IMG/VR virus record: IMGVR_UViG_3300009034_000039
Coordinates: 1-59,413 of that record
Source of the DNA: a virus
Taxonomy: Duplodnaviria > Caudoviricetes
Strand: one strand, 5' to 3'
Length of the DNA stretch: 59,413 nucleotides
The translations under genes and the position numbers were made by a program. How positions within the stretch are numbered: position 1 is the first letter of the stretch; every line of letters starts with the position of its first letter. Positions 4,770 to 52,226 of the stretch are shown in pieces. The notes beneath the pieces are model-generated. The model saw only the letters and a program-made list of their open reading frames with translations. It did not search any database and had not been told where the DNA came from.

Positions 4770-4777
4770 AGAGAGCT

Positions 4778-8433: not shown

Positions 8434-8434
8434 T

Positions 8435-8445
8435 AAACTTTATAA
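8435..8445 (+). promoter_or_regulatory. Archaeal BRE/TATA promoter
   Basis: AAACTTTATAA about 28 nt before the next start codon. Confidence 0.6.
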
Positions 8446-8472
8446 GCTTTGGAACTTCTTAAAGCCTAATAG

Positions 8473-8784
8473 GTGAATGAAATGGATCCTATAATGGAAT
8501 TAGGAACTACACTTGTTGAAGCAGTAGCTGAGAATCCCTTTGCTGTAGCTTTTCTAGCGTCTATAGCTCGTAACGTAACTGGTTATCTTTGGAAGAAAAC
8601 TAAATACAAAGTTAAATATGATAAGCGTGAATTTCTGGCGACTTTAGTGAAATTTGAAGTAGCTGTTCCAGCTTTTACAGTCTTAGCTGGCCTCGTTCTC
8701 GCACCATCACAAGCGACTATTGTAGCCTCAGCAAGTGTTGTTTTAGCAGACGTCGTAGCTTCTTGGAGAGCTAAACTCCAATAA
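8473..8784 (+). CDS. Small membrane protein (holin-like)
   Basis: Two to three hydrophobic segments, located after the tail module, followed by a T-tract. Confidence 0.5.
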   Translation: MNEMDPIMELGTTLVEAVAENPFAVAFLASIARNVTGYLWKKTKYKVKYDKREFLATLVKFEVAVPAFTVLAGLVLAPSQATIVASASVVLADVVASWRAKLQ

Positions 8785-9104
8785 GCTTCATACCTTTTTT
8801 TAGTTAGAAGAGATACATTTATATTCTAGGATGCTAGCTTATTAATTGAGTAAAAATGCGAAGACTAGTATGGAAACGGACGAAGGAACCATTCCGAGTA
8901 AGTGAAGCAATCTCAACGAGTAAGAATAGAATCAAGAAACAAAAGATTACAAGGTGGAGCGGTGGAGTTAAAATCGAGGAGGTAGAATAGAAATGAAAAC
9001 TAAACAAACTATAATATTAGGAATTTTACTAGGACTCTTAGCTATATCAACACAAATACAACCAATATACAATTTAGTAGAAGCGATACTTTAAGGGGTT
9101 TAAC

Positions 9105-9326
9105 TTGGTCAAGGACACGGGTAAGCGAGGAGCACAAGCTAGATCTAAATTCTACAAGAAAGTTAAAAACATCAGCGAAGAACAAGCTATAGAGAATTTT
9201 AAAGAAAAGCAGAGAAGACTAGCAGAAAAGATGGGATGGAATGATACATGGCTTAAAGACGCTAAGAATAGAAGGAATATTAAGAACCATAAATCTAGGG
9301 TGAAGCATTCTGGACATGGTAAATGA
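9105..9326 (+). CDS. Basic hypothetical protein
   Basis: ORF with TTG start and G-rich SD. Confidence 0.5.
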   Translation: MVKDTGKRGAQARSKFYKKVKNISEEQAIENFKEKQRRLAEKMGWNDTWLKDAKNRRNIKNHKSRVKHSGHGK

Positions 9327-9777
9327 TCCTTTAGTAAGATGCGCAAAGAAATTAAATCAGAGACTATCTGAAGAACTTAAAGTAGTTCTTTTGAGTGAGA
9401 TTGATGTAGAAGATAGTGCTTCTCATTTTGCTGTTTGTACTGATAAACGTTGTTGGGGTATTTCGAATCTAGATACTCAAGTAAGCTATCTTGTTTTTGA
9501 TAGAACAGTAAAGAGATGTCATACACTTAAATTAAACCTTATAAAAGCCCTGACAGAAGTCTCTTTACATGAATTAATTCATCAAATTATGAGATATGAT
9601 TACTCAAGATTTATTAATAATGAACCTAAGGTATATGCTTTAACTTACATTTTATTAGCTTACTTTCATTTAGATCATGTAAAGAAACGTATAATAGATA
9701 TATTCAAAAAACTCGATTCTAAGTACGATGTAGGATTATTCTTTAATGAATTAGCGGAGTCTATTATAGATGTGTGA
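9316..9777 (+). CDS. HExxH (zincin-like) protein
   Basis: SLHELIHQ motif. Confidence 0.55.
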   Translation: MVNDPLVRCAKKLNQRLSEELKVVLLSEIDVEDSASHFAVCTDKRCWGISNLDTQVSYLVFDRTVKRCHTLKLNLIKALTEVSLHELIHQIMRYDYSRFINNEPKVYALTYILLAYFHLDHVKKRIIDIFKKLDSKYDVGLFFNELAESIIDV

Positions 9778-9932
9778 TGTTGAGAAATTAGATATGGGAT
9801 TAACATGTTCAAGTCTAGATGAAGACGTTGGTATAGGTTATAAAAAAGATACTGTTTGGGTATGTAAAGCTTGCTTTAATAAGATAGCTGAACAACCATG
9901 GCCTTGGGATATTATAGAGGAGAAAGTTTAGT

Positions 9933-10217
9933 ATGGAAGAAGCAGTTTTCGTATTTAATAAACACCGTGATATGAACTTTACTTATAATAAAAGAACACA
10001 TGAGATTGGATTACCTTGTAAGCTAGGATATACAGAAACAGATCTAGCATCTAAAAGAGAATTTACAACAATATTTCACTGGATTATAAATGCTATTAAT
10101 CATGAATACTTGCATAAACTTCTACATGAATTTATTAGTTATGACACTACATCAACATTTGATACCTTTTATTATGGTGATATGATTTGTGGATTTATTG
10201 ATAGTGAAAAGATATGA
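9933..10217 (+). CDS. Small HExxH (zincin-like) protein
   Basis: INHEYLHKLL; similar to 41012-41311. Confidence 0.6.
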   Translation: MEEAVFVFNKHRDMNFTYNKRTHEIGLPCKLGYTETDLASKREFTTIFHWIINAINHEYLHKLLHEFISYDTTSTFDTFYYGDMICGFIDSEKI

Positions 10218-11546: not shown

Positions 11547-11646
11547 TGGCTACGTGTTCAAAATGTGGCAGTTTAGTATTCTATAATTGGAAGACTCACC
11601 GTGAACAGTGTAAAGGATGTGGCGCTTCTCCAGAAAGGGGATATCC

Positions 11647-12054
11647 ATGATTAAAACTGCTTGTTTGAAAGACTTAAAGAAACTTCCTAAAGCCTCTATT
11701 AAAGTAATAGTGATGAGACACTTCCCATGGTGGGTTAGAGGCATTAAGAAGAGGTACACTATTAACGCTCCAGAACTTGGTCCTACTCCTGAACTATTAA
11801 AGGCCTTTATTGAAGCTAAGAAGAAACATGGAGTTAAGTTGGCTTGGATCTATACTCACTATGAGTTAACATTCATTAGACATCTTAACCGTAGCGAGAA
11901 AGCTCAGAAGACTATGAAAGAACTTAAGGCTATCTCTATGGAGAAAGATGTTTATCTAATATGTAAAGAACCGACTGATGAGTACTGCCATAGAAGGTTG
12001 CTTAAAGAGTATATTGAAAAGCACATATACGCTGTTAGAGGAACGGGAAAGTAG
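11647..12054 (+). CDS. DUF488 family protein
   Basis: PELGPTPELL and LICKE...CHRRLL motifs; ATG at 11647 after GGGG SD. Confidence 0.75.
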   Translation: MIKTACLKDLKKLPKASIKVIVMRHFPWWVRGIKKRYTINAPELGPTPELLKAFIEAKKKHGVKLAWIYTHYELTFIRHLNRSEKAQKTMKELKAISMEKDVYLICKEPTDEYCHRRLLKEYIEKHIYAVRGTGK

Positions 12055-21662: not shown

Positions 21663-22136
21663 ATGAGAAAGCTAGATCCTAAAGTTCTTTCCTTATTAAA
21701 GGCGTTAAGTCAAGGTAAGAAGGAATCACCGATAAAATATAAACTTGCTTACGTTATCTTTCCTTGGCATAATAACCCAGAGTCTAATACTAGACAAGTC
21801 GGTGAGATATGTAGGGATATAATGGCCAAGCACCCTATTATAACTATCTCCAGTCACTTTGCATTTGACTTACTATATGGAGCTACTAATAATAGAGATC
21901 CGCTCCAAGATGTGTGGTCTCGACTGCCATCTGAAGACAAATGGCAGTGTTTACAGGTTGGTATAGCTGACCTAACTTTAGTTGCTAAATGTGATCTAAT
22001 TATTGTCGCTCATCCGTTACAGTATGATGTTAGTCCCGGTATGTGCTGGGAATACTGTTTAGCTAAATTACTAGGTAAACCTATACTATACTGGAAAGAT
22101 GGGAAGTTAAAGGAGAAATACCCATGGGTAGAATAA
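21663..22136 (+). CDS. Nucleoside 2-deoxyribosyltransferase-like (DUF4406/DUF1937-like) protein
   Basis: CDLIIV...SPGMCWEYCLAKLLGKPI motif. Confidence 0.65.
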   Translation: MRKLDPKVLSLLKALSQGKKESPIKYKLAYVIFPWHNNPESNTRQVGEICRDIMAKHPIITISSHFAFDLLYGATNNRDPLQDVWSRLPSEDKWQCLQVGIADLTLVAKCDLIIVAHPLQYDVSPGMCWEYCLAKLLGKPILYWKDGKLKEKYPWVE

Positions 22137-22537
22137 ACCAAGAAGAAATGGAAAAGAGAACTAAAGCGCATTTAAAGTCTTTAATAGATCTTATGATTCA
22201 AAGAAATAAGAAGTACTCTACAACCGACATTACTAAGAAAGAAGCAACGCAGAACTTCTTAAGGAATGCAGAGTTAAATAAGATTTTTCGTTTAAAAGAG
22301 TTGATTGAAGAACCGTATGGGATCTCTATTCATTATGCCATACAGAAGATTGACAGATTAATTAATACAATTCTTATTGCTCATCAACAAAGTTATGATA
22401 GATCTATGGTATTACCACCACCTTATTTGCTTCATGCTGTGGATAAAGATTTAAAAAAGGTTATTTCAGACTCTGTTGATGACGCTATAGTCTATCTTAT
22501 AATAACTAAACGGATTCTAGAGGAAATGAGATTATGA
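22124..22537 (+). CDS. DUF1599 / nucleotide-modification-associated alpha-helical protein
   Basis: RNKKY...NF...KIDRL...DSVDDAIVY pattern. Confidence 0.6.
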   Translation: MGRINQEEMEKRTKAHLKSLIDLMIQRNKKYSTTDITKKEATQNFLRNAELNKIFRLKELIEEPYGISIHYAIQKIDRLINTILIAHQQSYDRSMVLPPPYLLHAVDKDLKKVISDSVDDAIVYLIITKRILEEMRL

Positions 22538-30545: not shown

Positions 30546-32120
30546 ATGTTCAGAATAAGAGGAACAGATAGACGTAAAGAGTTCGTAAAGGGTACTCTAG
30601 TAGAAGCTCAACAGATCCGAGGTAAGAAGGTAGAGTACTTTAGTCCGGAGACAGGTTTTATCTTACTTAAAAGGATAATGCCTATTAACTATACTAAGAA
30701 AGTCATACAGAGAGCTAGATCAGCAGCTAAGCTTAGTTTAGAGACTCCTCTCTCATTAAGAGAGTTCTATTATACTTTGAGAGTTACACCAGATCTAGTT
30801 AAAGCTTTCGATACTGGTAATCCAGACGCTATCTATCCTATGGTATTGAGAGCTATATGTGACGTTGAGATCTTATGTGATATAGGCCGAGAGTACTTTA
30901 CAGTGGGAAACCTTAGTAAAGGCTTTATCTACTATTACCACTCTGAGAAGTTTAGTGACAAGGACAGAATGATTGCATTCACTGAGAACATAGCTAGATC
31001 AGCTCTAGCTGACGAAGAACTAGAAGCATGTGAAAACATTATAGTAATCGAGAAGAACGCTGCAGCTACTAGGTTAGTTGATCTAGGTATGTCAGAGCTA
31101 ACTAACAGCGTTATAGTGACAGTTGGTGGAAACTTTAACCGAGCAATATGGGCTCTAACTGACAGGTTTAAAGACTCTAAGAATATCATATACTTTTGTG
31201 ACGCTGATGCCTACGGTGTAGACATGCTTAGGACTATAGCTGTAGGGACTAAGAATAGTAGACATTTAACATTTAAGTTTCCTCCAGCAAAGAACCCTAA
31301 CATATACTTAGCTGGTCTATATCCGTCTGTCGGTGAGAGTTTAGGACTACCTAACGACGTCCAGCAGAAGAGGCCTTTAGCTAACCCATTCGTACAGAGA
31401 AGGATTAACTTCTTACGTAGCCACGGGCTACTAAACCAACAGGATTACGATACATGGATGAGAGATAAGACCTACGAGCTAGAGTCTCTTTCTACAGCTT
31501 ATAAGAGTAGGAAGGACGGTAAACCTATAGGCTTAGCTATTCACCTGATAGAATACATGAGGCTCTTTGAGATACCAGTTAAGCCTCCTCTTCCACCAGA
31601 TGAAGAGTTGGAAAAAGAGTTTAGGAAGAAAGCTTACGAAGAGCTTAAGAGTGAAATTGAAGAGAAGCTTCAGTATCCTAAGGTAGTATGGGATCTATAC
31701 TGGCACTTTGAACAGGCTAAGAAGGATTTAATAGAAGAGATCTTTGAAGACCTTAAACCAGAATACGATGACGCTTTAGACGAAGTGACAGCTAAAGAGA
31801 TTAAGTTCCATATCTATAAGCAGTTTGAAGAGGATCCAGAACGGGCTACATACGATCTTAAAGCGATAGCTCATAAGCTTAAAGTACAGTTTGACATTAA
31901 ACCAGAATGGAAAGCAGATGAACTTACAGAGAGAGTTGAAGGCGCACTGGCAGACTATAAAGCAGAGGTTGTCGAGTTCGTTAAAGAAGTTGTCTTTGCT
32001 CCAATACATAACGAGACTACTATCATAGACACCTACGACTTGATACTTCAGAAGCTGGGTGCGGACCCGGAGGATTGTAGGAAAGTAAGAGAAGCTCTAG
32101 AGAAGAGGTTTAAGGAATGA
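30546..32120 (+). CDS. Topoisomerase VI subunit A / Spo11-like protein with long C-terminal extension
   Basis: WHD LREFYY (catalytic Tyr), TOPRIM VIEK and DADAYG, YELESL. Confidence 0.85.
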   Translation: MFRIRGTDRRKEFVKGTLVEAQQIRGKKVEYFSPETGFILLKRIMPINYTKKVIQRARSAAKLSLETPLSLREFYYTLRVTPDLVKAFDTGNPDAIYPMVLRAICDVEILCDIGREYFTVGNLSKGFIYYYHSEKFSDKDRMIAFTENIARSALADEELEACENIIVIEKNAAATRLVDLGMSELTNSVIVTVGGNFNRAIWALTDRFKDSKNIIYFCDADAYGVDMLRTIAVGTKNSRHLTFKFPPAKNPNIYLAGLYPSVGESLGLPNDVQQKRPLANPFVQRRINFLRSHGLLNQQDYDTWMRDKTYELESLSTAYKSRKDGKPIGLAIHLIEYMRLFEIPVKPPLPPDEELEKEFRKKAYEELKSEIEEKLQYPKVVWDLYWHFEQAKKDLIEEIFEDLKPEYDDALDEVTAKEIKFHIYKQFEEDPERATYDLKAIAHKLKVQFDIKPEWKADELTERVEGALADYKAEVVEFVKEVVFAPIHNETTIIDTYDLILQKLGADPEDCRKVREALEKRFKE

Positions 32121-34694: not shown

Positions 34695-34964
34695 GTGCTG
34701 TGTATGAATACTGTTAAGCGTATGGCAGAGTCTAGGCGTAAGCTTAGACAAGTAGCCGATATGGCCCATGGGGTCTATCTTAGAGCTGAAACTAATAAAG
34801 GTGACTCTTGGAGAGACGTAGATCGACATATCATACTTGCTAAGATACTTCTTAAACTCGATGAACTTGTAAATAAGCAGAATATTAAATCAGTTCTTGA
34901 TACGATAAATTGGCTTGAAATGTATGGAGCTAAACTGGTGGAGAAAGAGAATGGGTCAATTTGA
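34695..34964 (+). CDS. Small helical protein, possibly MazG-like
   Basis: KGDSW...EL...DTIN pattern; acidic residues look degenerate. Confidence 0.35.
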   Translation: MLCMNTVKRMAESRRKLRQVADMAHGVYLRAETNKGDSWRDVDRHIILAKILLKLDELVNKQNIKSVLDTINWLEMYGAKLVEKENGSI

Positions 34965-35134
34965 ACAAGGTAAGATCTATCCATGTCTTAGATGCTCTAA
35001 TCTAATGGAATGGGTGTGTATGCCAACAGGTGAAATATGGACTATGGTACGTATTGAGAAAGATAAAACAACAATGCATTTTGGTCTTCTACACTGTCTT
35101 AAATGTGGGAACGCACAGATGCAGAGGTTTAAGA

Positions 35135-35452
35135 TTGAAACTAAAAAGAATTAGAATAACTCCAGAGCTTTTAGTTGCACTACTTAGAGGAAATTATAGA
35201 CACTTTACAACTGAACCTAGATTACCAAGAGATCTTAAGATTGTAGATATTACTCGGACTTTTTATCCATATCCATCAAATACTTTTGATTTAATAGTTG
35301 AAAGTGAAGAATTTGAAGAACTAAAAGAAGCTGAAACTATACCTGATATTGAACTTATTTGTCGTGATATACCAACAGTAGATGTATGGGCTATAGATCC
35401 TGATACCGAAAAGAAGATTAAGGTTGTTATTGAAGGTGCCACAGTTTATTAA
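35135..35452 (+). CDS. Hypothetical protein
   Basis: TTG after GAGG; LPRDLKIV...LIVESEEF pattern. Confidence 0.55.
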   Translation: MKLKRIRITPELLVALLRGNYRHFTTEPRLPRDLKIVDITRTFYPYPSNTFDLIVESEEFEELKEAETIPDIELICRDIPTVDVWAIDPDTEKKIKVVIEGATVY

Positions 35453-36206
35453 CAAGACAGCTCTAGATATAGAGAAGGCACTTGAGAGAGGTATTGTACA
35501 CAGAGACTATATTGCTCATTGTCTTCGTTGGAATTTTGTTCTTAAATTTGCTAAGAGAGGCATGAAGATTTTAGATGTAGGTTGCGGTAATGGTATGTTG
35601 GCCCAGGTTCTTTATTCTAATAAATATAAACCTGCTCTCTATGTTGGTATAGATATTAGATCTTCAGTAATAAAAAAGATGTTGGAGAGAAAAACTAACT
35701 TTCCAAAGATAGGTTACGTAATGGATATACGGTTTGGTATTAACCGATTAGGTGATATTGAGAGAGAAGAAGGTTTTTTTGATCTAATTACTTGTTTTGA
35801 AGTCATTGAACATTTTGAGGTTCAATATATTGAACATGTGCTCAAAGAAATGAATCGACTACTTAAACCTGGTGGTGTTCTACTTTTATCTACTCCTAAC
35901 TACGATGGAGTCCATAAAGCAAGTAATCATATTCACGAGTATCGAGAAGGAGAGTTAGAAGGGTTCTTAGGTAAATACTTTACTATCGAGCGCAAAGTAG
36001 GAACCTTTGCTAGTCAGAAGGATATCTTACCAGTTATGAGCGGAAGTGAGACATATATCTTTAATCTACTTAAGCAGTGGTTTGACTCTAACGTGTTAAG
36101 CGTTATATTTGCTAGTCTTCATCCGAGTCAGAGTCGTAACATACTATGGGTATGTCGTAAACTAGAAGGAAACTTTATTAAGAATAAGCAGCTTAGTTTA
36201 AGATGA
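35424..36206 (+). CDS. Class I SAM-dependent methyltransferase
   Basis: ILDVGCGNG, FDLITCFEVIEH, LLKPGG, STPN. Confidence 0.9.
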   Translation: MLLKVPQFINKTALDIEKALERGIVHRDYIAHCLRWNFVLKFAKRGMKILDVGCGNGMLAQVLYSNKYKPALYVGIDIRSSVIKKMLERKTNFPKIGYVMDIRFGINRLGDIEREEGFFDLITCFEVIEHFEVQYIEHVLKEMNRLLKPGGVLLLSTPNYDGVHKASNHIHEYREGELEGFLGKYFTIERKVGTFASQKDILPVMSGSETYIFNLLKQWFDSNVLSVIFASLHPSQSRNILWVCRKLEGNFIKNKQLSLR

Positions 36207-36838
36207 GAACAATGAAACAGGGTAATCTAATAGACTTTGAGCCTACTAAAGAAGAGAAATACGAGATTTATCTAAGAGAACTTAAAGACTGTCGGAACTG
36301 TACTTTAAAGGATGACGGTCAGCATTGCTGTCCAGGCTGGGGTAATCGAAATGCAGATGTTATGTTTGTAGGAGAAGCTCCAGGTGAAGTAGAGAACCCC
36401 GCTTTAAGGGGTTTAGCTTTTGTTGGTAACAGATCTAGTGATATGTTCTATAAAGCAGTTAAGGATACGTTCGGAGTTTATGGAGACATTTGGACTACGA
36501 ATATAGTTAAGTGTAATCCACCCGGTAATAGGACTCCAACTGAGATTGAAGTTAAGATATGTAGTACATTTATTCTTAAAGAGGTTCATATTGTTAAGCC
36601 AAGAATGATTGTGGCTTTAGGTCGAACAGCTATTAACTATTTTATGCCGCACATGAAAGGTAGATCTATTAGATCTATGCTTGGTTCTAGGTTTACTTGG
36701 AGAGGAATTGATTTGTATGTTTTGTACCATCCTGCTTATGCTTGCCGTAATGGACCTAAGTTTGAGAAGGTTTACCTAGGTTGGTTCAAAATACTTAAAC
36801 GGAAACTGGATGAGTTGGTATCTAATGGGAGAGAATGA
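36203..36838 (+). CDS. udg: Uracil-DNA glycosylase family 4
   Basis: CxxC, GEAPG, FVG, TNIVKCNPPGNRTP, YHPA. Confidence 0.9.
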   Translation: MRTMKQGNLIDFEPTKEEKYEIYLRELKDCRNCTLKDDGQHCCPGWGNRNADVMFVGEAPGEVENPALRGLAFVGNRSSDMFYKAVKDTFGVYGDIWTTNIVKCNPPGNRTPTEIEVKICSTFILKEVHIVKPRMIVALGRTAINYFMPHMKGRSIRSMLGSRFTWRGIDLYVLYHPAYACRNGPKFEKVYLGWFKILKRKLDELVSNGRE

Positions 36839-37085
36839 AAGAGAACGGATTAAGTTCAAGATAGTCATCTCTTATGATGAGAAGTGTAAGAAAGCGAGAG
36901 AAGAGAGTAAGAAAGCAGGAACTATACGATCTTTTATTACGATAAAAGTTACTCCTAAAGATACAAAGAAGAAAGTAGTAGAGAATGTTCTTATTTATGC
37001 TCTGAACTGGATGCTAACAGGAGATCCAGAAGCATTAGAACGTTATGTTAAAGAATTAAAGAAAATGCCGGTGGGTATAGTATGA
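36810..37085 (+). CDS. Hypothetical protein
   Basis: ORF in operon context. Confidence 0.5.
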   Translation: MSWYLMGENERERIKFKIVISYDEKCKKAREESKKAGTIRSFITIKVTPKDTKKKVVENVLIYALNWMLTGDPEALERYVKELKKMPVGIV

Positions 37086-37208
37086 GTGAAGAAGTACGAA
37101 GTTGTGAAGGTTGTCCAATAATTGGTAATTGTGAAGCATGTCAACATCATAATGTTGGTCCTAATGAACGTTGTGAATGTTGTAGTTACGTTATAAGGTG
37201 TACTTCAA

Positions 37209-37997
37209 ATGCTTAATGAAACTTGTCCGGTAATTAAAGAATTTTGTGATGGTCTAATCGTGCATCTAATTAAGAGTGGGACTTACAAAGGTGGATCTCT
37301 ATTATGGTGTGCCGATGAGCAGAGAGATCCTGTTTATATGGATTATTGTCCTAGGAAGTTACCAGAGTTGGAAGGAAGAGAAAAGATAAGAAGGATACAG
37401 CATCTTAAAGAGCTGGGTTTAAACTGTCCGGAGTATATGGTAATAAGAAAACCATCGGACACCGAACTACTAAAAAAATATCCTAGATGGAGTATTAGGA
37501 GCTTTCCTACTATAGGTTTAAAGATAAGTACTTCTGATCTTCTTCAATTAAAAGAATTTAAAGCCTTACTTGAACCTAGTATAGTACCTCCACATGCACC
37601 ATCAATAAGCACAACGCTTGCTATACCTCTTTGTAAAGCTATGCTTAAACTAGGTTATTATCCAATGCCATGTCCAGTAATAGATCCTAAAGATGCTCAG
37701 TGGGCTGGCTGCGCTATTAGAACTCCTAAAGGTGTTACATTAGAAATAGCTGTAGGTCCAGTGATGGTCCGTAAAGTTAGTAGAGATGGCGAAATAGACG
37801 TTAAATATAAGAACATAACTAAAGACAAGTTGAAACTCCTCGACAACATCTTAGTTAAAACTGCTATACTAGAGATTTTACAGAAAGTCCCTGTAGGATT
37901 TGTTTTAGAATTAAGTTGGTATAACGTGCCTGTTGGGTATCAAGATTCACATCTGATCTTCTGGGACATTATGCCGAGTAATAAGTATATGGTGTAA
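37209..37997 (+). CDS. Putative ATP-grasp-like protein
   Basis: LKELGLNCP, SIRS and LELSW...LIFWD resemble ATP-grasp elements. Confidence 0.4.
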   Translation: MLNETCPVIKEFCDGLIVHLIKSGTYKGGSLLWCADEQRDPVYMDYCPRKLPELEGREKIRRIQHLKELGLNCPEYMVIRKPSDTELLKKYPRWSIRSFPTIGLKISTSDLLQLKEFKALLEPSIVPPHAPSISTTLAIPLCKAMLKLGYYPMPCPVIDPKDAQWAGCAIRTPKGVTLEIAVGPVMVRKVSRDGEIDVKYKNITKDKLKLLDNILVKTAILEILQKVPVGFVLELSWYNVPVGYQDSHLIFWDIMPSNKYMV

Positions 37998-38000
37998 AAG

Positions 38001-38882
38001 ATGAATATAGAAGTAGGAAGTTGTTTAGAAGCGATTCAACGAGCAGCAACTCATGTAGTTGGAGTTGGTGAAGAATTTCGTAGGTCTAGTGGATCTTGGT
38101 GTATGTGCGATGCTACAATGACTAAAATGATAGAAGTACAGAATACTACTATAACTATTCAGAATCCTCTATTTAGATGGAATACTCTTTTAAGTAGAGG
38201 AACACTAGTTGAGACAGTAGACTTTCTATTAGGCCTTAATCCAGGGTTTATACCGAATGTCTGGGACTACTATGCGAAGAAGATTGCTCTTAGAGGGAAA
38301 CTACCTTATACTTACGGTGAGAGAATCTTTGGTGGAGAAATAGACCAGTGGAAGCATGTAGTTAAGTTATTGAAAGAGAATCCTACAACTAGGCATGCTA
38401 CTATTCTTATGCACCGAGTTATTGATAGAACTAGAGATTACGTACCATGTACATTCTTATGGCACTTTCAAGTAGATAAGGACAAGCGACTGAACATGAC
38501 TACGACTATGAGATCACAGGATGTCTTTAAAGGCTTACCCGGTGATCTATTTGCTTTTACATTGTTCCATGAGCAAATGGCACTAGAAACAGATTTAGAA
38601 CTTGGAGAGTATACACACTTCTGTTGTAATCTACATCTATATGAACCTGGCCATGAGAAGGCTTTAGATAAGATCTTTAAGGCTAAAGAACCATCTTCAG
38701 CTCTAGAAGCCGATCTCTTAACTGAAGAGTTGAAATATGATCTATATTGGGGTATTAGAGGTTTGACAGTTAGCGACAAAAGGCTTAAATTAAAACAACT
38801 AGAGAACTTTATTACTTCGACGAAAAGCTATTGGGAGAATTATATAAATTTAATAAATGGTGGTTATCCTGATCCTAAGTGA
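38001..38882 (+). CDS. Thymidylate synthase homolog, probably a dCMP (hydroxy)methyltransferase
   Basis: YGER, VPCT (catalytic Cys), RSQD, HLYE; Asp at the position of E. coli ThyA Asn177. Confidence 0.85.
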   Translation: MNIEVGSCLEAIQRAATHVVGVGEEFRRSSGSWCMCDATMTKMIEVQNTTITIQNPLFRWNTLLSRGTLVETVDFLLGLNPGFIPNVWDYYAKKIALRGKLPYTYGERIFGGEIDQWKHVVKLLKENPTTRHATILMHRVIDRTRDYVPCTFLWHFQVDKDKRLNMTTTMRSQDVFKGLPGDLFAFTLFHEQMALETDLELGEYTHFCCNLHLYEPGHEKALDKIFKAKEPSSALEADLLTEELKYDLYWGIRGLTVSDKRLKLKQLENFITSTKSYWENYINLINGGYPDPK

Positions 38883-39315
38883 TAGATTAATACGAGCTGC
38901 TATAATTAACGAGCAGATCAAGATAGAGCCTTTTAATGAAGAAAATCTTAGACCCGTAAGTTATGATCTAACTGTAGGAAACATATTCGAATTTATGGGT
39001 GAAGTTCCAATGATGAAAGATCCAGAGACTTGGTTAGAACCACATACTCTTTATGGTATTGAAACTATGGAGACAATAGGAGTTAAAGATTTAACAGGGT
39101 TTATTAGTATAAGATCCTGGGCTGCTAGGCAAGGTATATTCGCTTCTTACTCTCATTTAGTGGATCCAGGTTATTTAGGTAAATTAACTTTTACTATACT
39201 TCCTAAACTTACTAGAGTTTTGTGTAAGAAGAATGTAACTAGTATGTTTCAGATTCTATTCTTGGAGAATTCTTTAATAGATAAGCTTTGGGAAGGAGAC
39301 AGCAAGCACTTCTAG
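38857..39315 (+). CDS. Trimeric dUTPase / dCTP deaminase-family protein
   Basis: LSD, SYDLTVG, RSxxARxG, VDPGYxG. Confidence 0.85.
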   Translation: MVVILILSDRLIRAAIINEQIKIEPFNEENLRPVSYDLTVGNIFEFMGEVPMMKDPETWLEPHTLYGIETMETIGVKDLTGFISIRSWAARQGIFASYSHLVDPGYLGKLTFTILPKLTRVLCKKNVTSMFQILFLENSLIDKLWEGDSKHF

Positions 39316-46558: not shown

Positions 46559-46918
46559 ATGAGAAAAAGAACTTTAAGAGAAAGAAGAAGACTTTCATAT
46601 CAAGGTTTAGCTTCTAGATCTGGAGATCCAGGATACACAATACAACATCACCCGCGAGTACATAATAAGCCTTTGAGATGTAAAAGTGGTAAACATCAGA
46701 TGCAGACTACATTAATTGAAAGAGTACCATTCTATGTTTGTAAAAAGTGTGGTGTTTTCATACTTAAGACTCTCTATGAGAAAACTATGGCTAAGTCTGA
46801 TAGAGAAAGAATTGAAGCCATGCTTAATAAGAATGTCACTCCTAAGCAGAGGTTAATCAATAAGATAGCCTATAAACAGTATATGGAAAAGAGATATGGC
46901 GCAAGGGTTCTACCTTGA
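46559..46918 (+). CDS. Basic Zn-finger protein
   Basis: CKSGKH...CKKCG; ATG after GGAGG. Confidence 0.55.
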   Translation: MRKRTLRERRRLSYQGLASRSGDPGYTIQHHPRVHNKPLRCKSGKHQMQTTLIERVPFYVCKKCGVFILKTLYEKTMAKSDRERIEAMLNKNVTPKQRLINKIAYKQYMEKRYGARVLP

Positions 46919-48846
46919 GTAAGAAAGACATAACTATTAAGTTCCTAGGAACATGTGCGGAAAGATCTTTACCTAGAGAGAGTCCTGCAGCTTGTGCTCA
47001 GTGTGTTGAAGCCGTTAAAGATTCTAAACATGCCTTTCAGAGTAGTCTATTAGTTAATAATAAGTTTATGCTAGATGCCGGGTGGAACTTCTCTAAGTTA
47101 TTAGGTGAAATAGGAGCTAAGTATATTCTTATAACTCATGCCCATTCGGATCATGTAGGAGCTATAGTATCTGAAGACCGGAAGATTAAAGCAGAGATTC
47201 ATGGACCTAAAGGTCTTAGGTCAGACATAACTGAGTTGTATGGTAGTATAGGTCATCAGATAACTGAGCACGAACTTGGAAAGTCTTTTACTTTAGATGG
47301 TGTTAAGTTTAAGTTTGTACCCGTCTATCATAGTAGTAAAGTAGCAACTTACGCTATAAAGATTGATGATCGTGTAATGTACGCCCCGGACTTCTTAGGC
47401 TTTATTAAAGGTTTTGAATTAGAAGGCATTGAACTCTTTATTGGCGATGGTAGTTGTCTTAATAGGTCTATTAAAAGAAAGAACAATGTAGGTCACATGA
47501 GCATGATTAAGCAAGTACAGATGTGTTTTGAAGCTAAAGTTAAATATGTCATGTTTACGCACGTCGGACATCTTTATACTAAGTATGATGAGAGCTTACT
47601 AACTCTAAGAAAGCTCACTAAAGATAGTAAGTTCTATCTGAATACGGAGAAGGTTTACATAGCTAAAGACGCCGACAAGTTTACACTTAAAGCCGACTCT
47701 AGAATCATTAAAGGCGTAGGATCCTATATGAAGTCTAACAAACCTGCTTGGAAGATATCGGCTGCTGAAGAAATCTTCGATGTACCAGGATTTAAATTAC
47801 CTGCCCAGATTATTCTTAAAGTAGATGGTATAAGGATTCAGATGCATATAGCTGAAACAGTATGTTTATTTTTAGAAGATGGGACTTTAGAGAAGAGAGA
47901 TATCTTTAAGAGCTCTGTAGTGGAATTTGCTGAGAAGATTCCCGAAGATACTGTTCTAGATGTTAGAGGTATAGTAAAAGATAATAAGGTTGTAGAGTTC
48001 CAGGTACTCGATATTCTATTCTATAAGAATAAAGATTTAAGAGATCTACCGTTAAGCGAAAGAATGAAGTATCTAGCTAAGATTCCTACCACTAAATATC
48101 TTAAACCTCTTAAGGAAGGAAAGGGATTAGTAACTTGTAAGACTAAAGAGGAGCTTTTTATTGCTATGAAGTGTTCAGAAAATGTGATGATTAAAACTTT
48201 ATCGGGTGCTATTCTTAGGAAAAGTGTTCATAATAAAGGTTGGATTAAGAGGCTAATAGAGAAAGATTGGTGTGAAGGAGAAGGAGGTAAATGGATAACA
48301 GTCAAAGGAAAACATATTTGTATTTCTGCCGATGTTAAGATTTTAAGAGATAGTTCTAAATTAGTTAGAGTTCTTCATGGCAAGGATTCTTCAACTGATT
48401 TAAGATGGCATAAAGGGGTTCCTAATGAGACTGCTCAGAAGATGGCAAAGGATTTACAATATTATCCAATTAAAGTGAGAAATCGCGTTAAAAGTATTGA
48501 AGTTTTTCCGGATGTATTAAATAGTAAAACAACTGGTTTACATATAAATACAGTATCTGGTGGGTATATTAATATTTCTACAAAGAGTACTTCAGTTGAA
48601 CACACCTTTCATCATGAATTAGGTCATTCGGTTTGGAAAGATTTTATTCGAGACACCGACTTTGAGCAATCGTATAGAAGAGTTGCTAAAGGAAGAACTA
48701 TGACTGCTTATGCTAAAACCTCTATAGAAGAGGATTTTTCAGAACACTTTGCTTTCTTTAAAAAGCAACCTGGAGCTTTAAAAGGGTTTTCACCAAAACG
48801 GTATAATCTAATATCAAAATTAATGGAGGATTTAGAACGCAAGTAA
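46915..48846 (+). CDS. Multidomain protein: MBL-fold hydrolase + ATP-dependent ligase-like adenylation domain + zincin peptidase
   Basis: FLGT, THAHSDH; KVDGIR, DILF...PLSER, ENVMIK; HELGH...EDFSE. Confidence 0.8.
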   Translation: MSKKDITIKFLGTCAERSLPRESPAACAQCVEAVKDSKHAFQSSLLVNNKFMLDAGWNFSKLLGEIGAKYILITHAHSDHVGAIVSEDRKIKAEIHGPKGLRSDITELYGSIGHQITEHELGKSFTLDGVKFKFVPVYHSSKVATYAIKIDDRVMYAPDFLGFIKGFELEGIELFIGDGSCLNRSIKRKNNVGHMSMIKQVQMCFEAKVKYVMFTHVGHLYTKYDESLLTLRKLTKDSKFYLNTEKVYIAKDADKFTLKADSRIIKGVGSYMKSNKPAWKISAAEEIFDVPGFKLPAQIILKVDGIRIQMHIAETVCLFLEDGTLEKRDIFKSSVVEFAEKIPEDTVLDVRGIVKDNKVVEFQVLDILFYKNKDLRDLPLSERMKYLAKIPTTKYLKPLKEGKGLVTCKTKEELFIAMKCSENVMIKTLSGAILRKSVHNKGWIKRLIEKDWCEGEGGKWITVKGKHICISADVKILRDSSKLVRVLHGKDSSTDLRWHKGVPNETAQKMAKDLQYYPIKVRNRVKSIEVFPDVLNSKTTGLHINTVSGGYINISTKSTSVEHTFHHELGHSVWKDFIRDTDFEQSYRRVAKGRTMTAYAKTSIEEDFSEHFAFFKKQPGALKGFSPKRYNLISKLMEDLERK

Positions 48847-48908: not shown

Positions 48909-49670
48909 ATGGTGACATTTACGGAAGATAATGTATTTCTTGGTGAAATGTTCTTAAAGAATCCGAGCAAAGATGATTTAAATAAAGATCATTTAATTAA
49001 TTTCTTTAAAGAACAACAAAAGACCATTCAGAAAGAAGTAACCACTGAGACTCCAAGTTGGCACGAACCTAGGCATGATGAAGACAAGCCTACGGAGCAA
49101 GAGGTTTTAGGAGAGTTAAAGGATGTTATTAAAGATGATTGGTGCGCTTCAATGGGTGGAGTGTGGCGGACTATAAGAGGTAATAAAATTTGTATATTAC
49201 CTGGGGAAGGAGCAGCTGAAGCGTTTCGTAGACAACGCTTTGCAAGGATAGAGATACCAGGACAGGAAAAAGGTTGGACTATTAAAGACAATAAAAAACT
49301 TACTAAATTACGGACACAAAATAACAGAAGAAAAGAACTTTGGAAGGAATATAATAAGGAATATGATAATTTACCAAATTGGGTTCAAGACTCGGTACAA
49401 AGAAGAGTAATTTATGGAAGTTATGTAACTGATAAAGAAAAACCTGGAGATATAGATGTAGTTCTATTTATAGATTCTAAAGTGGAACTAACTGATGATC
49501 AGACTGAGTATCTATTCGGAGAATTAGAAGAGAAATTTAATAAACCAACTGCTGAAGTAAACTTTCATATACTACCAGATGATGAGGAGTTTAGAGAAGA
49601 ATATTTAGAATGTATGAAGTTAGGAGAAGAAATTAGAGGATATGAAGATTATCAGGGGATTCAACATTGA
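48909..49670 (+). CDS. Protein with WxTxxG motif and C-terminal Pol-beta-like nucleotidyltransferase
   Basis: WRTIRGNKICI; YGSYVTDKEKPGDIDVV. Confidence 0.75.
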   Translation: MVTFTEDNVFLGEMFLKNPSKDDLNKDHLINFFKEQQKTIQKEVTTETPSWHEPRHDEDKPTEQEVLGELKDVIKDDWCASMGGVWRTIRGNKICILPGEGAAEAFRRQRFARIEIPGQEKGWTIKDNKKLTKLRTQNNRRKELWKEYNKEYDNLPNWVQDSVQRRVIYGSYVTDKEKPGDIDVVLFIDSKVELTDDQTEYLFGELEEKFNKPTAEVNFHILPDDEEFREEYLECMKLGEEIRGYEDYQGIQH

Positions 49671-49841: not shown

Positions 49842-50081
49842 ATGAGTAGAGAAGCGCCAAAGTCAATGCTATATTTCATATACCTTTGTAACATTATAGC
49901 AGCTTTAGGTATAGGACTGATATTCTGGACCCGAATGCTTAGACAGAGTAGTCTAGTAATACCAGGATTCTTTCTTCTGATTATGGGTCTAATGGGTTTA
50001 GCGTACTGTTACTATTGGGCACAAAGAGAGATGCAGAGGAAAAGAAAAGAAGAAAAGGAAGAAGAACAAGATGTGGCATGA
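49842..50081 (+). CDS. Two-TM membrane protein
   Basis: Two hydrophobic segments; GAGGTG SD. Confidence 0.6.
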   Translation: MSREAPKSMLYFIYLCNIIAALGIGLIFWTRMLRQSSLVIPGFFLLIMGLMGLAYCYYWAQREMQRKRKEEKEEEQDVA

Positions 50082-50589
50082 CAACTTTGAGTCTGACTAT
50101 GCGACAGTTAGTCTTAATAGATGGATATGGCCAACTGTATTTGAATTAATGCTTAAGTACTTTAAACCTACTAGTATAGTAGATTTAGGTTGTGGTGAAC
50201 ATAGATGGTCTTGGTCAGATGCTGTTATTGTTGGATTTGATAGAGAGAAGATACCTTGGGTTATTTATTCTGATTTTAATAACCAGATAGGTCTATCTAA
50301 TAACTCTACTGACTATTCACTTGCTATAGAAGTTATTGAACATTTAGAGAATCCATTACACTTCTTAAGAGAGATTAAACGAGTAACTAGAAAACGGAGT
50401 ATTATATCTCATCCGGATAGAGCTAATAGTACTGCTTTTTATGGTGAAAGTACTTATGACTCAATGGGTCATATAAGTATAATATCAAGTTGGTTGATGA
50501 AAAAACACTTTGAGAAGTTAGATATGAAGTTACTAGAGACTAGACATGTTAGACACGGACAGATGGCTATTCATGTGGTTGATGTATGA
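50071..50589 (+). CDS. Class I SAM-dependent methyltransferase
   Basis: VDLGCG, EVIEHLENP. Confidence 0.85.
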   Translation: MWHDNFESDYATVSLNRWIWPTVFELMLKYFKPTSIVDLGCGEHRWSWSDAVIVGFDREKIPWVIYSDFNNQIGLSNNSTDYSLAIEVIEHLENPLHFLREIKRVTRKRSIISHPDRANSTAFYGESTYDSMGHISIISSWLMKKHFEKLDMKLLETRHVRHGQMAIHVVDV

Positions 50590-51311
50590 AAGTTATTCTA
50601 TTAGTAGCTTTAAAAGACAGTGAAGATATTCTAGACGACTGGTTTAAGTACGTTAACTTATTAGATCCACAGCCAGATAAGATTATATTTTGTGAGAATA
50701 ACAGTACAGATAAAACTTTAGATAAGCTCCAGGACTGTAAGGTAGACTATGAACTAATAAGATTCTGGACTAGGCCTTGGAAAGAGATAGCTAAGATAAA
50801 CAGGTATTTGACTATTGCTGTAGCTAGACAGTTCTTATTAACTAAAGCCAGATATTTAGATCCAGACAACGCTATATTCTTAGACGATGATGTATTCTCT
50901 AAGAGTAGAGATATGATAGAGTCTTTGACTACATGGGGTTTAGATATAGTTGGTGGACCTTATTTGAGACTATTCCCTACTGGTATCTTTATAGGATCTC
51001 TTTGGAGAGACGCTACGAGAAGGTATAAATATACAACGATAAAGAAGATTAGAAGAGTTCTAGACGAGCCAATAGCTACTAGTGCTGGGTGTCTGTGCTT
51101 AAGTAGAAAGGTTATCCAGGATAGGAGACTTAACTTCTATCCTAGACCTAAGCCAGACGCTTCAGAGGACTTTGGTTACTGTCTTAAGGCTAGGGAGTTA
51201 GGGTATAATATTTACTTGGACGGATTACTTACCTTAACTCACAGACTTAGAAGGAAGAAGAGAGCTTGGATGAGAGATGGTAAAGATGGTAAGTTTATAT
51301 ACGAAGAGTAA
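50586..51311 (+). CDS. GT-A fold (family 2-like) glycosyltransferase
   Basis: ENNSTDKT, FLDDD, SEDFGYC. Confidence 0.85.
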   Translation: MKVILLVALKDSEDILDDWFKYVNLLDPQPDKIIFCENNSTDKTLDKLQDCKVDYELIRFWTRPWKEIAKINRYLTIAVARQFLLTKARYLDPDNAIFLDDDVFSKSRDMIESLTTWGLDIVGGPYLRLFPTGIFIGSLWRDATRRYKYTTIKKIRRVLDEPIATSAGCLCLSRKVIQDRRLNFYPRPKPDASEDFGYCLKARELGYNIYLDGLLTLTHRLRRKKRAWMRDGKDGKFIYEE

Positions 51312-51352: not shown

Positions 51353-51556
51353 ATGGTAGCTAGACAGACAAAGAAAAATGGTTGTAAAGTTACTTATTGT
51401 GACTACCATATCTGTGGAAGTATGAGCTGTATAGGTCGCGAGGAAGATAATATAACCATTCTTAAATATCCAAATGCTTGTAATAGAGGAATGGCTTGGA
51501 TGGCTGATGCACTAGCTGGTAAGAAGGTTAGAAGTTTTTACCATAATAAAGTCTAG
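51353..51556 (+). CDS. Cys-rich hypothetical protein
   Basis: TATA at 51310-51321. Confidence 0.45.
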   Translation: MVARQTKKNGCKVTYCDYHICGSMSCIGREEDNITILKYPNACNRGMAWMADALAGKKVRSFYHNKV

Positions 51557-52090
51557 AATCTTTTTAATAACTAAGTCCCATCTATCAAACTCTTTAGCAG
51601 TTATATGTAGACTTTCTATACCGAATGAAGCAAACCACTTATCCTTTCTAGCGTCTGCCTTCTTAGTCATCTTATGGAAAGGACCATCTGCTTCTATTCT
51701 CTTCTGGGTAAAGGGATTATAGAAGTCTATCCTGCATCTACCACTTTTAGGACCAGGGAAAGGACAGTTATGAATAAAGTCATTAGCAACATCTAGGTAT
51801 ATTAGAAACATCCAAGTTAACTCTTCTAGAGAAGACCAGTGGTTATAGTGCCATCTACGTGAACAGGAAGAAGAGAACTTAATAAAGGCTACTTCTCTAG
51901 GGGAAGTACGTGGATACTTCCTATTAGTGGCTCTGCAGAAAGCTCTATAGCCACCGAACACTTCCATAAGCCTCTCAAAGAGTTCAGGCCTCTTCTTCTT
52001 AACCGTCTTATAATGAGGAGTACCTCTTTTAAGTTCTTCTCTAAACTCAGTCTCAAAAGCTATGTTTAGATCTTTACGAATAAAGCTCAA
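51512..52090 (-). CDS. DUF559/Vsr-like PD-(D/E)XK endonuclease
   Basis: RIDFY...IEADGPFH...DARKDKW...G; TTG start at 52090 preferred. Confidence 0.75.
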   Translation of the reverse strand: MSFIRKDLNIAFETEFREELKRGTPHYKTVKKKRPELFERLMEVFGGYRAFCRATNRKYPRTSPREVAFIKFSSSCSRRWHYNHWSSLEELTWMFLIYLDVANDFIHNCPFPGPKSGRCRIDFYNPFTQKRIEADGPFHKMTKKADARKDKWFASFGIESLHITAKEFDRWDLVIKKILDFIMVKTSNLLTS

Positions 52091-52226
52091 TGATCTTGTT
52101 GAGCATTTTGATGAAGGCTGGTTTCTTTGTACTTTCTCCAAGTAACTCAACTGCCCGCCAGAACTTACCATACTCAGTTGGTGTTAGTGTAAATTGTAAA
52201 CTTTTAGTCTTAGACCGTTTGTTCAA
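52074..52226 (-). CDS. 50-aa RHH-like protein (not in ORF track)
   Basis: MNKRSKTKSLQFTLTPTEYGKFW...; TTG start overlapping the upstream gene. Confidence 0.5.
   Translation of the reverse strand: MNKRSKTKSLQFTLTPTEYGKFWRAVELLGESTKKPAFIKMLNKIIELYS

Follow-up and report, generated by a model that had tools for sequence, protein, structure and literature searches.

A thymidylate synthase homolog predicted to act on dCMP and its candidate cytosine-replacement module in a tailed virus with a plausible archaeal host

Do the genes at positions 34,695 to 39,315 of the IMG/VR virus record IMGVR_UViG_3300009034_000039 build a pathway that replaces cytosine in the DNA of this tailed virus, and if they do, with which base and by which enzymes? 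We analysed the whole record (59,413 nucleotides, called the window below), in which a gene for a thymidylate synthase (TS) homolog is clustered with genes for an S-adenosylmethionine (SAM) methyltransferase, a uracil-DNA glycosylase (UDG) homolog, an ATP-grasp protein and a protein of the dUTPase/DCD fold (Table 1). TS-based cytosine replacement is a classic and already known bacteriophage anti-restriction strategy, and the original prediction for this locus, made from its letters, was 5-methyl- or 5-hydroxymethylcytosine in an archaeal virus, possibly further modified by new chemistry. We conclude that the cluster is probably a pre-replicative cytosine-replacement module. The core of the prediction, C5 modification of cytosine by a TS with aspartate at position 177 (E. 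coli numbering) together with a non-deaminating dUTPase-fold pyrophosphatase, is upheld by comparison of residues with characterised enzymes, by synteny and by a counterpart in the cultured phage AXL3.

The TS homolog matches the Pfam family Thymidylat_synt (PF00303) at 6.3e-22 (78.4 bits against a cut-off of 24.3 bits), and by this match it is a member of the thymidylate synthase superfamily; its best match in the PDB is the CMP 5-hydroxymethylase MilA (8.6e-13), and it is less than 34% identical to known phage TS homologs. It carries RSQDVFKGLPGD, and E. coli K-12 ThyA (NC_000913) has RSCDVFLGLPFN at the aligned place. The alignment pairs Cys150 with the ThyA nucleophile C146, Asp182 with N177, Asp174 with D169, Tyr147 with L143 (in three independent alignments) and Asp146 with A142, and the equivalents of ThyA E58, Y94, C146, R166, S167, D169, H207 and Y209 are all retained. 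The family is rare, with 16 proteins found in a search of 5.8 billion, 33 metagenome loci and 3 genome loci. Asp182 is invariant in 16 of the 16 proteins, as are Cys150, Arg171, Ser172, Asp174, Tyr105, His212 and Tyr214; the near-universal Asp among IMG/VR matches was not used as a count because one search pattern contained that Asp. The claim that Asp stands where E. coli ThyA has Asn177 is thus borne out by the Pfam match, the ThyA alignment and the 16 relatives.

What such a substitution means is known from other enzymes. According to the available text of the published work, C146 is the nucleophile and N177D makes dCMP the substrate (PMC13326640), N177D switches TS to dCMP and position 177 is the first-ranked discriminator of modified contigs (PMC8670742; PMC13326640), a bulky Leu at position 143 goes with a methyl product and Asp or Glu with a hydroxymethyl product in a relation that "appears to correlate" (PMC13326640), and D169N marks the flavin-dependent 5-hydroxy-dCMP synthases (PMC13326640). 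We read columns 143, 169 and 177 in alignments to five fetched enzymes. E. coli ThyA has Leu, Asp and Asn and makes dTMP; the XP12 enzyme has Asn, Asp and Asp and is validated as a producer of 5-methyl-dCMP (5mdCMP; bioRxiv 10.1101/2024.12.05.627091, available text); T4 gp42 has Asp, Asp and Asp and makes 5-hydroxymethyl-dCMP (5hmdCMP); RB69 gp48 has Glu, Asn and Asp and makes 5-hydroxy-dCMP (5hodCMP); and the enzyme of the Kuttervirus Sa157lw, annotated as a dUMP hydroxymethylase, has Asp, Asp and Asn, with 5-hydroxymethyl-dUMP (5hmdUMP) as product. The window enzyme has Tyr, Asp and Asp. Since Asp182 occupies the ThyA N177 position, the TS homolog is, judged by its diagnostic residues, a dCMP-specific enzyme of the folate type. 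It keeps Asp174 where RB69 gp48 has Asn, unlike the 5-hydroxy-dCMP synthases.

Position 177 also bears on the possibility that these genes serve ordinary nucleotide housekeeping, in which the TS would make dTMP, the DCD-fold protein as a dUTPase would supply dUMP, the UDG would repair uracil, the other genes would be unrelated and the viral DNA would be canonical. Related records are annotated in this way (the AXL3 authors call its gp28 a thymidylate synthase), the nearest NCBIfam model of the window enzyme is a methanogen-type thymidylate synthase (2.5e-20), and haloarchaeal tailed viruses often carry Dcd, Tmk, ThyX and NDT genes (PMC8651126, available text). However, Asp is found at the N177 position in all 16 relatives although true Asn177 members exist in the family, published mutagenesis shifts the substrate to dCMP with exactly this change, the module is found again in company with dCTPase-like and deaminase genes of the kind seen in cytosine-replacing phages, and AXL3 has a separate ThyX as well as restriction-resistant DNA. 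We therefore consider housekeeping improbable.

Position 143 bears on the product. Since it is Tyr and not an acidic residue, 5-methyl-dCMP is somewhat favoured over 5-hydroxymethyl-dCMP; we put the predicted methyl product at slightly better than an even chance, and the hydroxymethyl product is a less favoured but still substantial possibility. The window enzyme lacks the acidic residue 143 of the dCMP/CMP hydroxymethylases, with some functional doubt left by the neighbouring Asp146, and it has the residue pattern of a dCMP methylase (Asp177, Asp169 and a non-acidic 143), although it lies outside the XP12 clade. Of the proposed 5-(hydroxy)methylcytosine, C5 one-carbon modification therefore stands, and Tyr143 tilts the choice toward methyl.

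A TS-family phylogeny, which had been proposed as a check, is in agreement with a change of substrate. It is a quick tree only, of the 45 rows that remained after fragments shorter than 200 amino acids and identical sequences were dropped. By active-site type, 31 rows have Asp177 with a non-acidic residue 143 (the window type, which includes XP12), 10 have Asp177 with an acidic 143, and four have Asn177 with a non-acidic 143 (including E. coli ThyA). The family of the window enzyme forms one clade of 36 rows (SH-aLRT 99), an Asn177 Tyr/Phe143 subclade is nested among Asp177 Tyr/Phe143 members (SH-aLRT 97), and XP12 falls beside E. coli ThyA, a long way from the window clade. The nesting indicates that the substrate switch took place while residue 143 stayed as it was, as one would expect had residue 177 alone changed. 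The two archaeal metagenome-assembled genomes (MAGs) with Asn177/Tyr-Phe143 homologs both also encode ThyX, so that these homologs are not the sole candidate thymidylate synthases there. One such homolog (Asn177/Tyr143) shares an 81-kb Nanoarchaeota MAG contig (G001 C2, L130/L131) with a 575-amino-acid open frame at about 62.7-64.1 kb that contains two tandem ThyX (Thy1) domains.

The gene that overlaps the end of the TS gene encodes the DCD-fold protein, which matches Pfam DCD at 2.2e-18 (67.3 bits against a cut-off of 27 bits) and scores 71.4 bits, under the cut-off of 92.8 bits, against the NCBIfam model dCTP_deam. The catalytic Glu of dCTP deaminases lies in a G-x-I-T-L-E motif (E138 in E. 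coli, E145 in M. jannaschii). In the window protein GKLTFTI aligns with GQITLEL of the Glu-bearing dCTP deaminase 4xjc, so that Thr stands at the Glu position, and with the deaminase Glu missing the protein falls outside both the dCTP deaminases and the bifunctional DCD-DUT enzymes. It retains the Asp of VDPGY, and for the equivalent Asp in dUTPases a catalytic role is described in the available text of PMC5519681. In nucleotide pyrophosphatases of the trimeric dUTPase fold, it is an Asp of motif III that places the catalytic water. The absence of the deaminase Glu, which had been pointed out for this protein, is thus confirmed; a function as a pyrophosphatase of dCTP and/or dUTP is predicted for it.

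Pre-replicative C5 modification requires a kinase that accepts the modified dCMP, which draws attention to the gene just before that of the TS. Its product had been called ATP-grasp-like, and no family match was found for it in Pfam, PHROG or NCBIfam, nor a relevant Pfam match for any of 67 members of its family that were scanned. AlphaFold gave a model with a pLDDT of 32 from the single sequence and of 86.8 with an alignment of 67 homologs. Foldseek with this model gave 160 matches at E<=0.001, mostly ATP-grasp enzymes among the matches listed, with MdnC, PurK, the succinyl-CoA synthetase beta subunit (SCS-beta), Ddl and RimK at the top. VIA-align gave Z scores of 8-10.3 to 19 chains, of which the top ones are ATP-grasp (10.3 to rifampin phosphotransferase 5hv1, and 9-10 to SCS-beta, synapsin and CPS), and 7-7.8 to PPIP5K2 and ITPK, both ATP-grasp phosphotransferases. 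Despite the lack of a family match, the protein therefore has, on the evidence of the model, an ATP-grasp fold, as had been supposed. Its core spans roughly residues 55-262, and the extension before it is rich in Cys and specific to the window clade. This extension (residues 1-55, encoded at 37209-37375; CPV..EFC ... LWC ... YC) was found only in the close relatives P0018 and P0020, is modelled at a pLDDT of 39-74, and may bind zinc. A profile search gathered 169 cluster representatives of this mini ATP-grasp family, which has neither a name nor a Pfam model. A search for fused forms among longer proteins found none, which is weak evidence, and the longer representatives P0106 and P0138 have only uninformative N-terminal extensions. 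Two tblastn queries with the family gave no match in 50,697 cultured phage records. A prediction of a complex between the TS dimer and the ATP-grasp protein, run without controls, scored 0.03 against a mark of 0.32.

No conventional candidate for the kinase was detected elsewhere. In the complete 59.4-kb genome Walker A motifs were found in RadA only, besides two motif matches in implausible contexts; the ATP-grasp protein itself has none and is not a member of the P-loop dNMP/thymidylate kinases. Thymidylate_kin (PF02223) is absent from five of five virus records that bear the ATP-grasp gene (two of them complete) and is present in 13 of 14 control genomes. L051, which is related to the window virus, is informative here. 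Its large terminase (TerL), portal, methyltransferase, UDG and DCD proteins are 56%, 51%, 61%, 46% and 36% identical to those of the window, and upstream of TerL its genes run in the window order. L051 has a distantly related TS of the Asp177/Asp143 type, and the slot between UDG and TS is filled by a 185-amino-acid P-loop protein that matches Thymidylate_kin (30.4 bits against a cut-off of 27 bits) and that, at E<=0.1, finds 14 entries in the PDB, every one a thymidylate kinase. Likewise, in L077 (8722-9717) and in AXL3 gp29 (L135 7292-8275) a Tmk-like P-loop domain (EGPDGxGK[ST]T) carries a C-terminal UDG-like domain, and this fusion lies directly upstream of an Asp177/Asp143 TS gene. The occurrence of an ATP-grasp gene or a Tmk-like gene in the same slot looks like non-orthologous displacement. 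Since the L051 slot is Tmk-like and our searches of the complete window genome detect no dNMP kinase of a conventional type, we read the ATP-grasp protein as a candidate kinase for modified dCMP, an assignment to which we give an even chance. For the same reason, the presence of a Tmk-like gene in the L051 slot, replacement of a dNMP kinase by the ATP-grasp protein seems likelier than new chemistry, and the part of the original prediction that foresaw further modification is weakened for this gene; the methyltransferase may still modify the base further. Published product assays co-express T4 gp1 or the cognate dNMP kinase (PMC13326640; bioRxiv 10.1101/2024.12.05.627091; available texts).

How constant is this gene company? 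We searched the window proteins against open reading frames (ORFs) within 5 kb of TS in 80 viral and 33 metagenome loci, all of which had been fetched through TS. Methyltransferase orthologs (E<=1e-30) were found in four of the viral and five of the metagenome loci, UDG in five and six, ATP-grasp in one and four, and the DCD-fold gene in two (L003 and L051) and none. The neighbours thus occur in a minority of TS loci, so the partnership is lineage-specific, though recurrent. The order in the window and in its near relative L003 is methyltransferase, UDG, p91 (a 91-amino-acid ORF conserved only in L003, at 77% identity), ATP-grasp, TS, DCD and TerL; in the L089 lineage, of which L091, L096 and L108 are near-identical fragments, it is ATP-grasp, methyltransferase, TS and UDG, with RadA and PolB next. 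Stronger evidence than these TS-anchored counts comes from the reverse test: a scan of viral contigs that started from distant ATP-grasp members of about 200 amino acids gave four loci, and in two of the four the ATP-grasp gene overlaps a TS gene. L120 (the complete 28.5-kb virus G004) has at 7003-9995 a methyltransferase, an ATP-grasp protein and an Asp177/Asp143 TS just before an integrase gene, and no pyrophosphatase was detected among its ORFs scanned. L121 has a MazG-like PRA-PH gene, a C5-methylase-like gene, an Asp177/Asp143 TS, an ATP-grasp gene and a dCMP deaminase, a set that by sequence corresponds to that of T4 minus the kinase. L122 and L123 are short fragments, apparently of one virus, with no TS in the sequenced part. 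In all, the ATP-grasp gene adjoins Asp177 TS genes in four independent virus lineages (L003, L089/L091/L096/L108, L120 and L121). Because the clustering of methyltransferase, UDG and ATP-grasp genes with TS, first remarked on in the window, recurs in other lineages with rearranged gene order, it is more than chance.

Two features of these relatives stand apart. C5-cytosine DNA methylase homologs (PF00145) adjoin the Asp177 TS module in L051 (6857-7771, 2.1e-21) and in L121 (5743-7074, 3.9e-14), two unrelated viruses; such genes would be odd in a cytosine-replacing virus. The terminase gene of L003 is read as two overlapping ORFs (4631-4996 and 4986-5720), which may reflect a frameshift or an assembly error.

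The methyltransferase and UDG genes were identified correctly from the start. The former encodes a class I enzyme above the cut-offs of Methyltransf_23, _31, _11, _25 and _12; its best NCBIfam model (4.3e-20, below the cut-off) and its best PDB match (4kdr, 6.8e-9) are both UbiG. Its orthologs include those of L120 (1.5e-50) and AXL3 gp31 (1e-36; phmmer), and tblastn against the 50,697 cultured or deposited phage records gave five matches, namely AXL3 (two records), PW916 and two uncultured Caudoviricetes. The UDG matches PF03167 at 1.6e-25 (90.2 bits against a cut-off of 24.3 bits) and the NCBIfam type-4 model Arch_udg at 2e-37, and it scores 119.5 bits against UDG_fam4, just under the cut-off of 125.3 bits. 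Family-4 enzymes are defined by GE(A/G)PG and HP motifs and by Cys ligands. GEAPG and YHPAY are readable in the translation, and by these marks the protein is a member of the family-4 uracil-DNA glycosylases that may remove uracil; that a UDG-like domain is fused to a Tmk-like kinase in AXL3 and L077 points to a place for the UDG-fold protein within the modification module itself, beyond repair alone.

The comparison with AXL3 brings in a cultured virus. There the genes run gp31 methyltransferase, gp30 NTP pyrophosphohydrolase, gp29 kinase with UDG-like domain, gp28 TS and gp27 dCMP deaminase; the AXL3 and window methyltransferases share a C-terminal motif, and in our alignment gp28 is an Asp143/Asp177 enzyme. 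According to the available text of the AXL3 paper (PMC7504290), 35 of the 37 restriction enzymes tried on the phage DNA left it uncut, and the two that did cut recognise sites made of A and T alone; the conclusion drawn there is that G/C bases carry an unknown modification, and gp28 is annotated as an ordinary thymidylate synthase though AXL3 also has ThyX. PW916 is 89.6% identical to AXL3, and the available part of the PW916 paper contains no restriction test. Since the orthologous methyltransferase ties the module to this cultured phage, its chemistry is directly testable.

AXL3 also leads to a different account of the window, in which the TS would make 5-hydroxymethyl-dCMP despite Tyr143, and the ATP-grasp protein (by activation or ligation) and/or the methyltransferase would then derivatise it, before or after incorporation, to an undescribed hypermodified cytosine that is possibly the base of AXL3. 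In its favour, the methyltransferase ortholog recurs with Asp177 TS genes in at least seven lineages, most partner TS enzymes (L051, L077, L089, L120, L121 and AXL3) have the Asp143 hydroxymethylase signature, the best named relatives of the methyltransferase are UbiG-type O-methyltransferases (with weak scores), the majority of ATP-grasp enzymes are ligases, AXL3 DNA bears an unidentified G/C modification, and Asp146 adjoins position 143 in the window enzyme. On the other hand, Tyr/Phe143 is kept through the window clade and is common to its Asn177 members, and L051 and AXL3 replace the ATP-grasp protein by a Tmk-like kinase and not by another ligase. Plain 5-methylcytosine (5mC) or 5-hydroxymethylcytosine (5hmC) in place of all C would also account for the AXL3 restriction pattern. 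The methyltransferase, moreover, occurs beside TS genes of every kind, with Tyr/Phe143, with the XP12-like Asn143 (L082) and with Asp143, evidence against a task that depends on a hydroxymethyl handle; by adding a second methyl group it could give rise to a new base. Hypermodification by this route seems to us unlikely, if well short of negligible.

We thus favour a pathway of simple replacement, which would run as follows. The DCD-fold protein would hydrolyse dCTP (and dUTP) to the monophosphate, so that dCMP is supplied and dCTP depleted. The TS homolog, with the dCMP specificity read from its diagnostic residues, would add the one-carbon unit of methylene-tetrahydrofolate to C5 of dCMP. The mini ATP-grasp protein, if synteny and the apparent non-orthologous displacement are a guide, would phosphorylate the modified dCMP to the diphosphate in place of a T4 gp1- or Tmk-type kinase, and a host nucleoside-diphosphate kinase and the viral PolB would then place the modified nucleotide in viral DNA. 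The family-4 UDG and the class I methyltransferase are conserved members of the same module.

Several points weigh against this pathway, which is drawn from sequence and predicted structure. The methyltransferase has no role in it. To our knowledge, no ATP-grasp nucleotide-monophosphate kinase has been described, and a search of the window genome with T4 gp1, which gave no match, had no positive control. The rule for position 143 is a correlation checked on only five fetched enzymes, and Asp146, one residue upstream of that position, might take over the positioning of water. The shared final base may need a hydroxymethyl handle, since the TS enzymes of L051, AXL3, L089, L120 and L121 have Asp143 beside the same methyltransferase and/or ATP-grasp protein. 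The DCD-fold protein may be a plain dUTPase, of a kind with the Dcd, Tmk and NDT genes that, as noted above, haloarchaeal tailed viruses often have. A dUTPase and a UDG could simply keep uracil from an archaeal-type PolB. Finally, a Pfam scan of 50 window ORFs detected no dihydrofolate reductase (DHFR), whereas XP12 has one adjoining its methylase.

A bolder extension of simple replacement, which we rate as rather unlikely, is that the mini ATP-grasp proteins are a class of non-P-loop deoxynucleotide kinases that, with the methyltransferase, UDG and Asp177 TS, build an undescribed cytosine derivative, the same base as in AXL3, by a module that bacterial phages and a deep lineage of archaeal tailed viruses have in common. 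If simple replacement is confirmed, archaeal viruses would join those that modify cytosine before replication, a protein family of 169 representatives without a Pfam model would gain a function, and there would be a case of an ATP-grasp enzyme substituting for a P-loop nucleotide kinase. Enzymes that produce modified cytosines or tell them apart are useful, too, as tools for epigenetic sequencing. In a literature search that did not cover 2013 work on predicted DNA base-modification systems, we found no description of TS-based cytosine replacement in archaeal viruses and no association of ATP-grasp with TS. In the available text of a survey of archaeal tailed viruses (PMC8651126) the genes named are limited to ThyX, Dcd, Tmk and NDT, and that of PMC7824862 treats ATP-grasp only as RNA ligases and R2K ligases.

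Table 1. Features of the module and of ORFs that were considered with it (window positions).
Feature	Position	Strand	Length (aa)	Assignment
Small ORF	34695-34964	+	89	not tied to module
Small ORF	35030-35452	+	140	not tied to module
Class I SAM methyltransferase	35424-36206	+	260	Methyltransf_23 at 7.1e-21
Family-4 (archaeal-type) UDG homolog	36203-36838	+	211	PF03167; 4-base overlap with methyltransferase gene
p91, between UDG and ATP-grasp genes	36810-37085	+	91	no family match
Mini ATP-grasp protein	37209-37997	+	262	fold match; predicted kinase for modified dCMP or enzyme of another ATP-dependent pathway step
TS-family enzyme	38001-38882	+	293	PF00303; predicted dCMP C5-methylase (5-methyl-dCMP synthase), less likely hydroxymethylase
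dUTPase/DCD-fold protein	38857-39315	+	152	Pfam DCD; predicted dCTP and/or dUTP pyrophosphatase; 26-base overlap with TS gene
Weakly nucleoside 2-deoxyribosyltransferase-like ORF	21663-22136	+	157	phrog_355 at 2.7e-6 over 102 residues; not tied to module

The original prediction had also drawn on two genes some distance away, at 21663-22537, and these add nothing to the case for modification. The likeness of the first to deoxyribosyltransferases holds to the extent of its PHROGs match (Table 1); its match to Pfam DUF7768 (6.2e-5) is below the cut-off, and nothing was found in NCBIfam or the PDB. The second (22124-22537) had been thought to resemble DUF1599, which we take to be PF07659, and this likeness fell away, with no match in Pfam (E<=0.01), NCBIfam, PHROGs or the PDB. 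The first ORF bears on a further possibility, that the TS homolog hydroxymethylates a free cytosine nucleotide and that a deoxyribosyltransferase-like hydrolase and the methyltransferase then make a small metabolite, as MilA does for mildiomycin. Bacimethrin biosynthesis is a comparable case. MilA is the best PDB match of the window TS, and a methyltransferase gene and this weakly similar ORF are at hand; but the ORF is 13 kb off, the module belongs to a tailed virus of lytic type and adjoins genes for replication and packaging, its other partners (a dNTP pyrophosphatase, a protein in the kinase slot and a UDG) act on DNA precursors or DNA, and the TS retains His212 and Tyr214 (ThyA H207 and Y209). 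A small-molecule pathway is thus very improbable. The two small ORFs upstream of the methyltransferase gene had no homologs near TS in any of the 113 loci, and the only match of the longer one is phrog_20473 (7.1e-6, no function assigned).

The window, a complete virus record, has direct terminal repeats, and we found in it a 71-base exact repeat; its GC content is about 36%, and the plus strand carries nearly all genes. Its genes for a large terminase, portal, prohead protease, major capsid protein and tail tube mark it as a tailed virus. An archaeal host is plausible because the virus encodes a RadA/Rad51 homolog (6e-36), a Topo VI-A/Spo11 Toprim domain, an XPF/ERCC4 nuclease with a helix-hairpin-helix, a family-B polymerase (PolB) whose best cultured matches are haloarchaeal tailed viruses (about 25% identity) and a type-4 UDG, and because the TS family has three genome-bin matches, all of them to archaeal MAGs (Nanoarchaeota, Nitrososphaerales and Thermoplasmata). 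The earlier description of an archaeal virus is thus plausible from replication and repair genes and MAG matches.

Other genes of the window deserve brief mention. At 30546-32120 lies a gene for a 524-amino-acid protein with a Topo VI-A/Spo11 Toprim domain (2.5e-9), and no partner B subunit was detected among the ORFs scanned. A 643-amino-acid protein (46915-48846) has a metallo-beta-lactamase-fold domain (Lactamase_B_2, 1.7e-14) and a weak ATP-dependent DNA ligase domain (0.001, under the cut-off). Three further ORFs encode a DUF488-N3a protein of the "active DUF488-N3 subclade" (11617-12054, 6.7e-15), a DUF6932/Pol-beta-type nucleotidyltransferase protein (48909-49670) and, among the few long ORFs of the minus strand, a DUF559-like product (51512-52171). 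Within 50071-51311, a second, weaker class I methyltransferase (Methyltransf_11, 7.1e-6) lies immediately 5' of a 241-amino-acid ORF (50586-51311) with a faint likeness to GT2-type glycosyltransferases (0.0033, under the cut-off; phrog_1574 at 2.1e-6), for which a PDB search gave no match; if a real glycosyltransferase, it could be relevant to the glycosylation of a hydroxymethylated base.

How does the module compare with known systems? The ATP-grasp protein shares its fold over residues 49-262 or so with the domains of SCS-beta, rifampin phosphotransferase and the PPDK group (Z of 9.6 to 1jkj, 10.3 to 5hv1 and 7.0 to 1vbg); it differs from them in an identity of 5-15%, in having neither a pre-ATP-grasp substrate domain nor a swivelling His domain, and in its nucleotide-modification context. 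The best solved relatives of the DCD-fold protein (5.6e-12) are 9ln0 and 8y1w, small archaeal proteins of similar length (155-156 amino acids) deposited as "dCTP deaminase"; they too lack the Glu at the TLE position (GNLTLML in 9ln0). A distinguishing feature of the window gene is its overlap with that of a dCMP-type TS. MilA (5b6d; mildiomycin), the best solved relative of the TS, has an Asp aligned with Asp182, and differs in having Asp in place of Tyr147 (our alignment; PMC13326640) and in acting on a ribonucleotide in antibiotic synthesis. XP12, in which all C is replaced by 5mC, shares Asp177, Asp169 and a non-acidic residue 143 with the window enzyme, but it has Asn143 and has DHFR and dCMP deaminase genes adjoining its TS, none of which the window has.

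The logic of T4, with its gp56 dCTPase/dUTPase, gp42 dCMP hydroxymethylase and gp1 dNMP kinase, is that of the proposed pathway, from pyrophosphatase to Asp177 TS to kinase to polymerase, and gp42 and the window TS both have Cys146, Asp169 and Asp177. Unlike T4, the window has Tyr and not Asp at 143, a pyrophosphatase of the trimeric dUTPase/DCD fold, an ATP-grasp and not a P-loop protein in the kinase slot, and no glucosyltransferase in the cluster. AXL3 differs in being a bacterial phage with PolA, in its MazG-like pyrophosphatase, its Tmk-like kinase fused to a UDG-like domain, its Asp143 TS and its extra dCMP deaminase and ThyX. It is alike in having an orthologous methyltransferase, an NTP pyrophosphatase, a protein in the kinase slot, a UDG-like domain and an Asp177 TS. 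The window module can be read from these sequences as the AXL3 parts list with two components displaced, a DCD-fold protein standing in for MazG and an ATP-grasp protein for Tmk.

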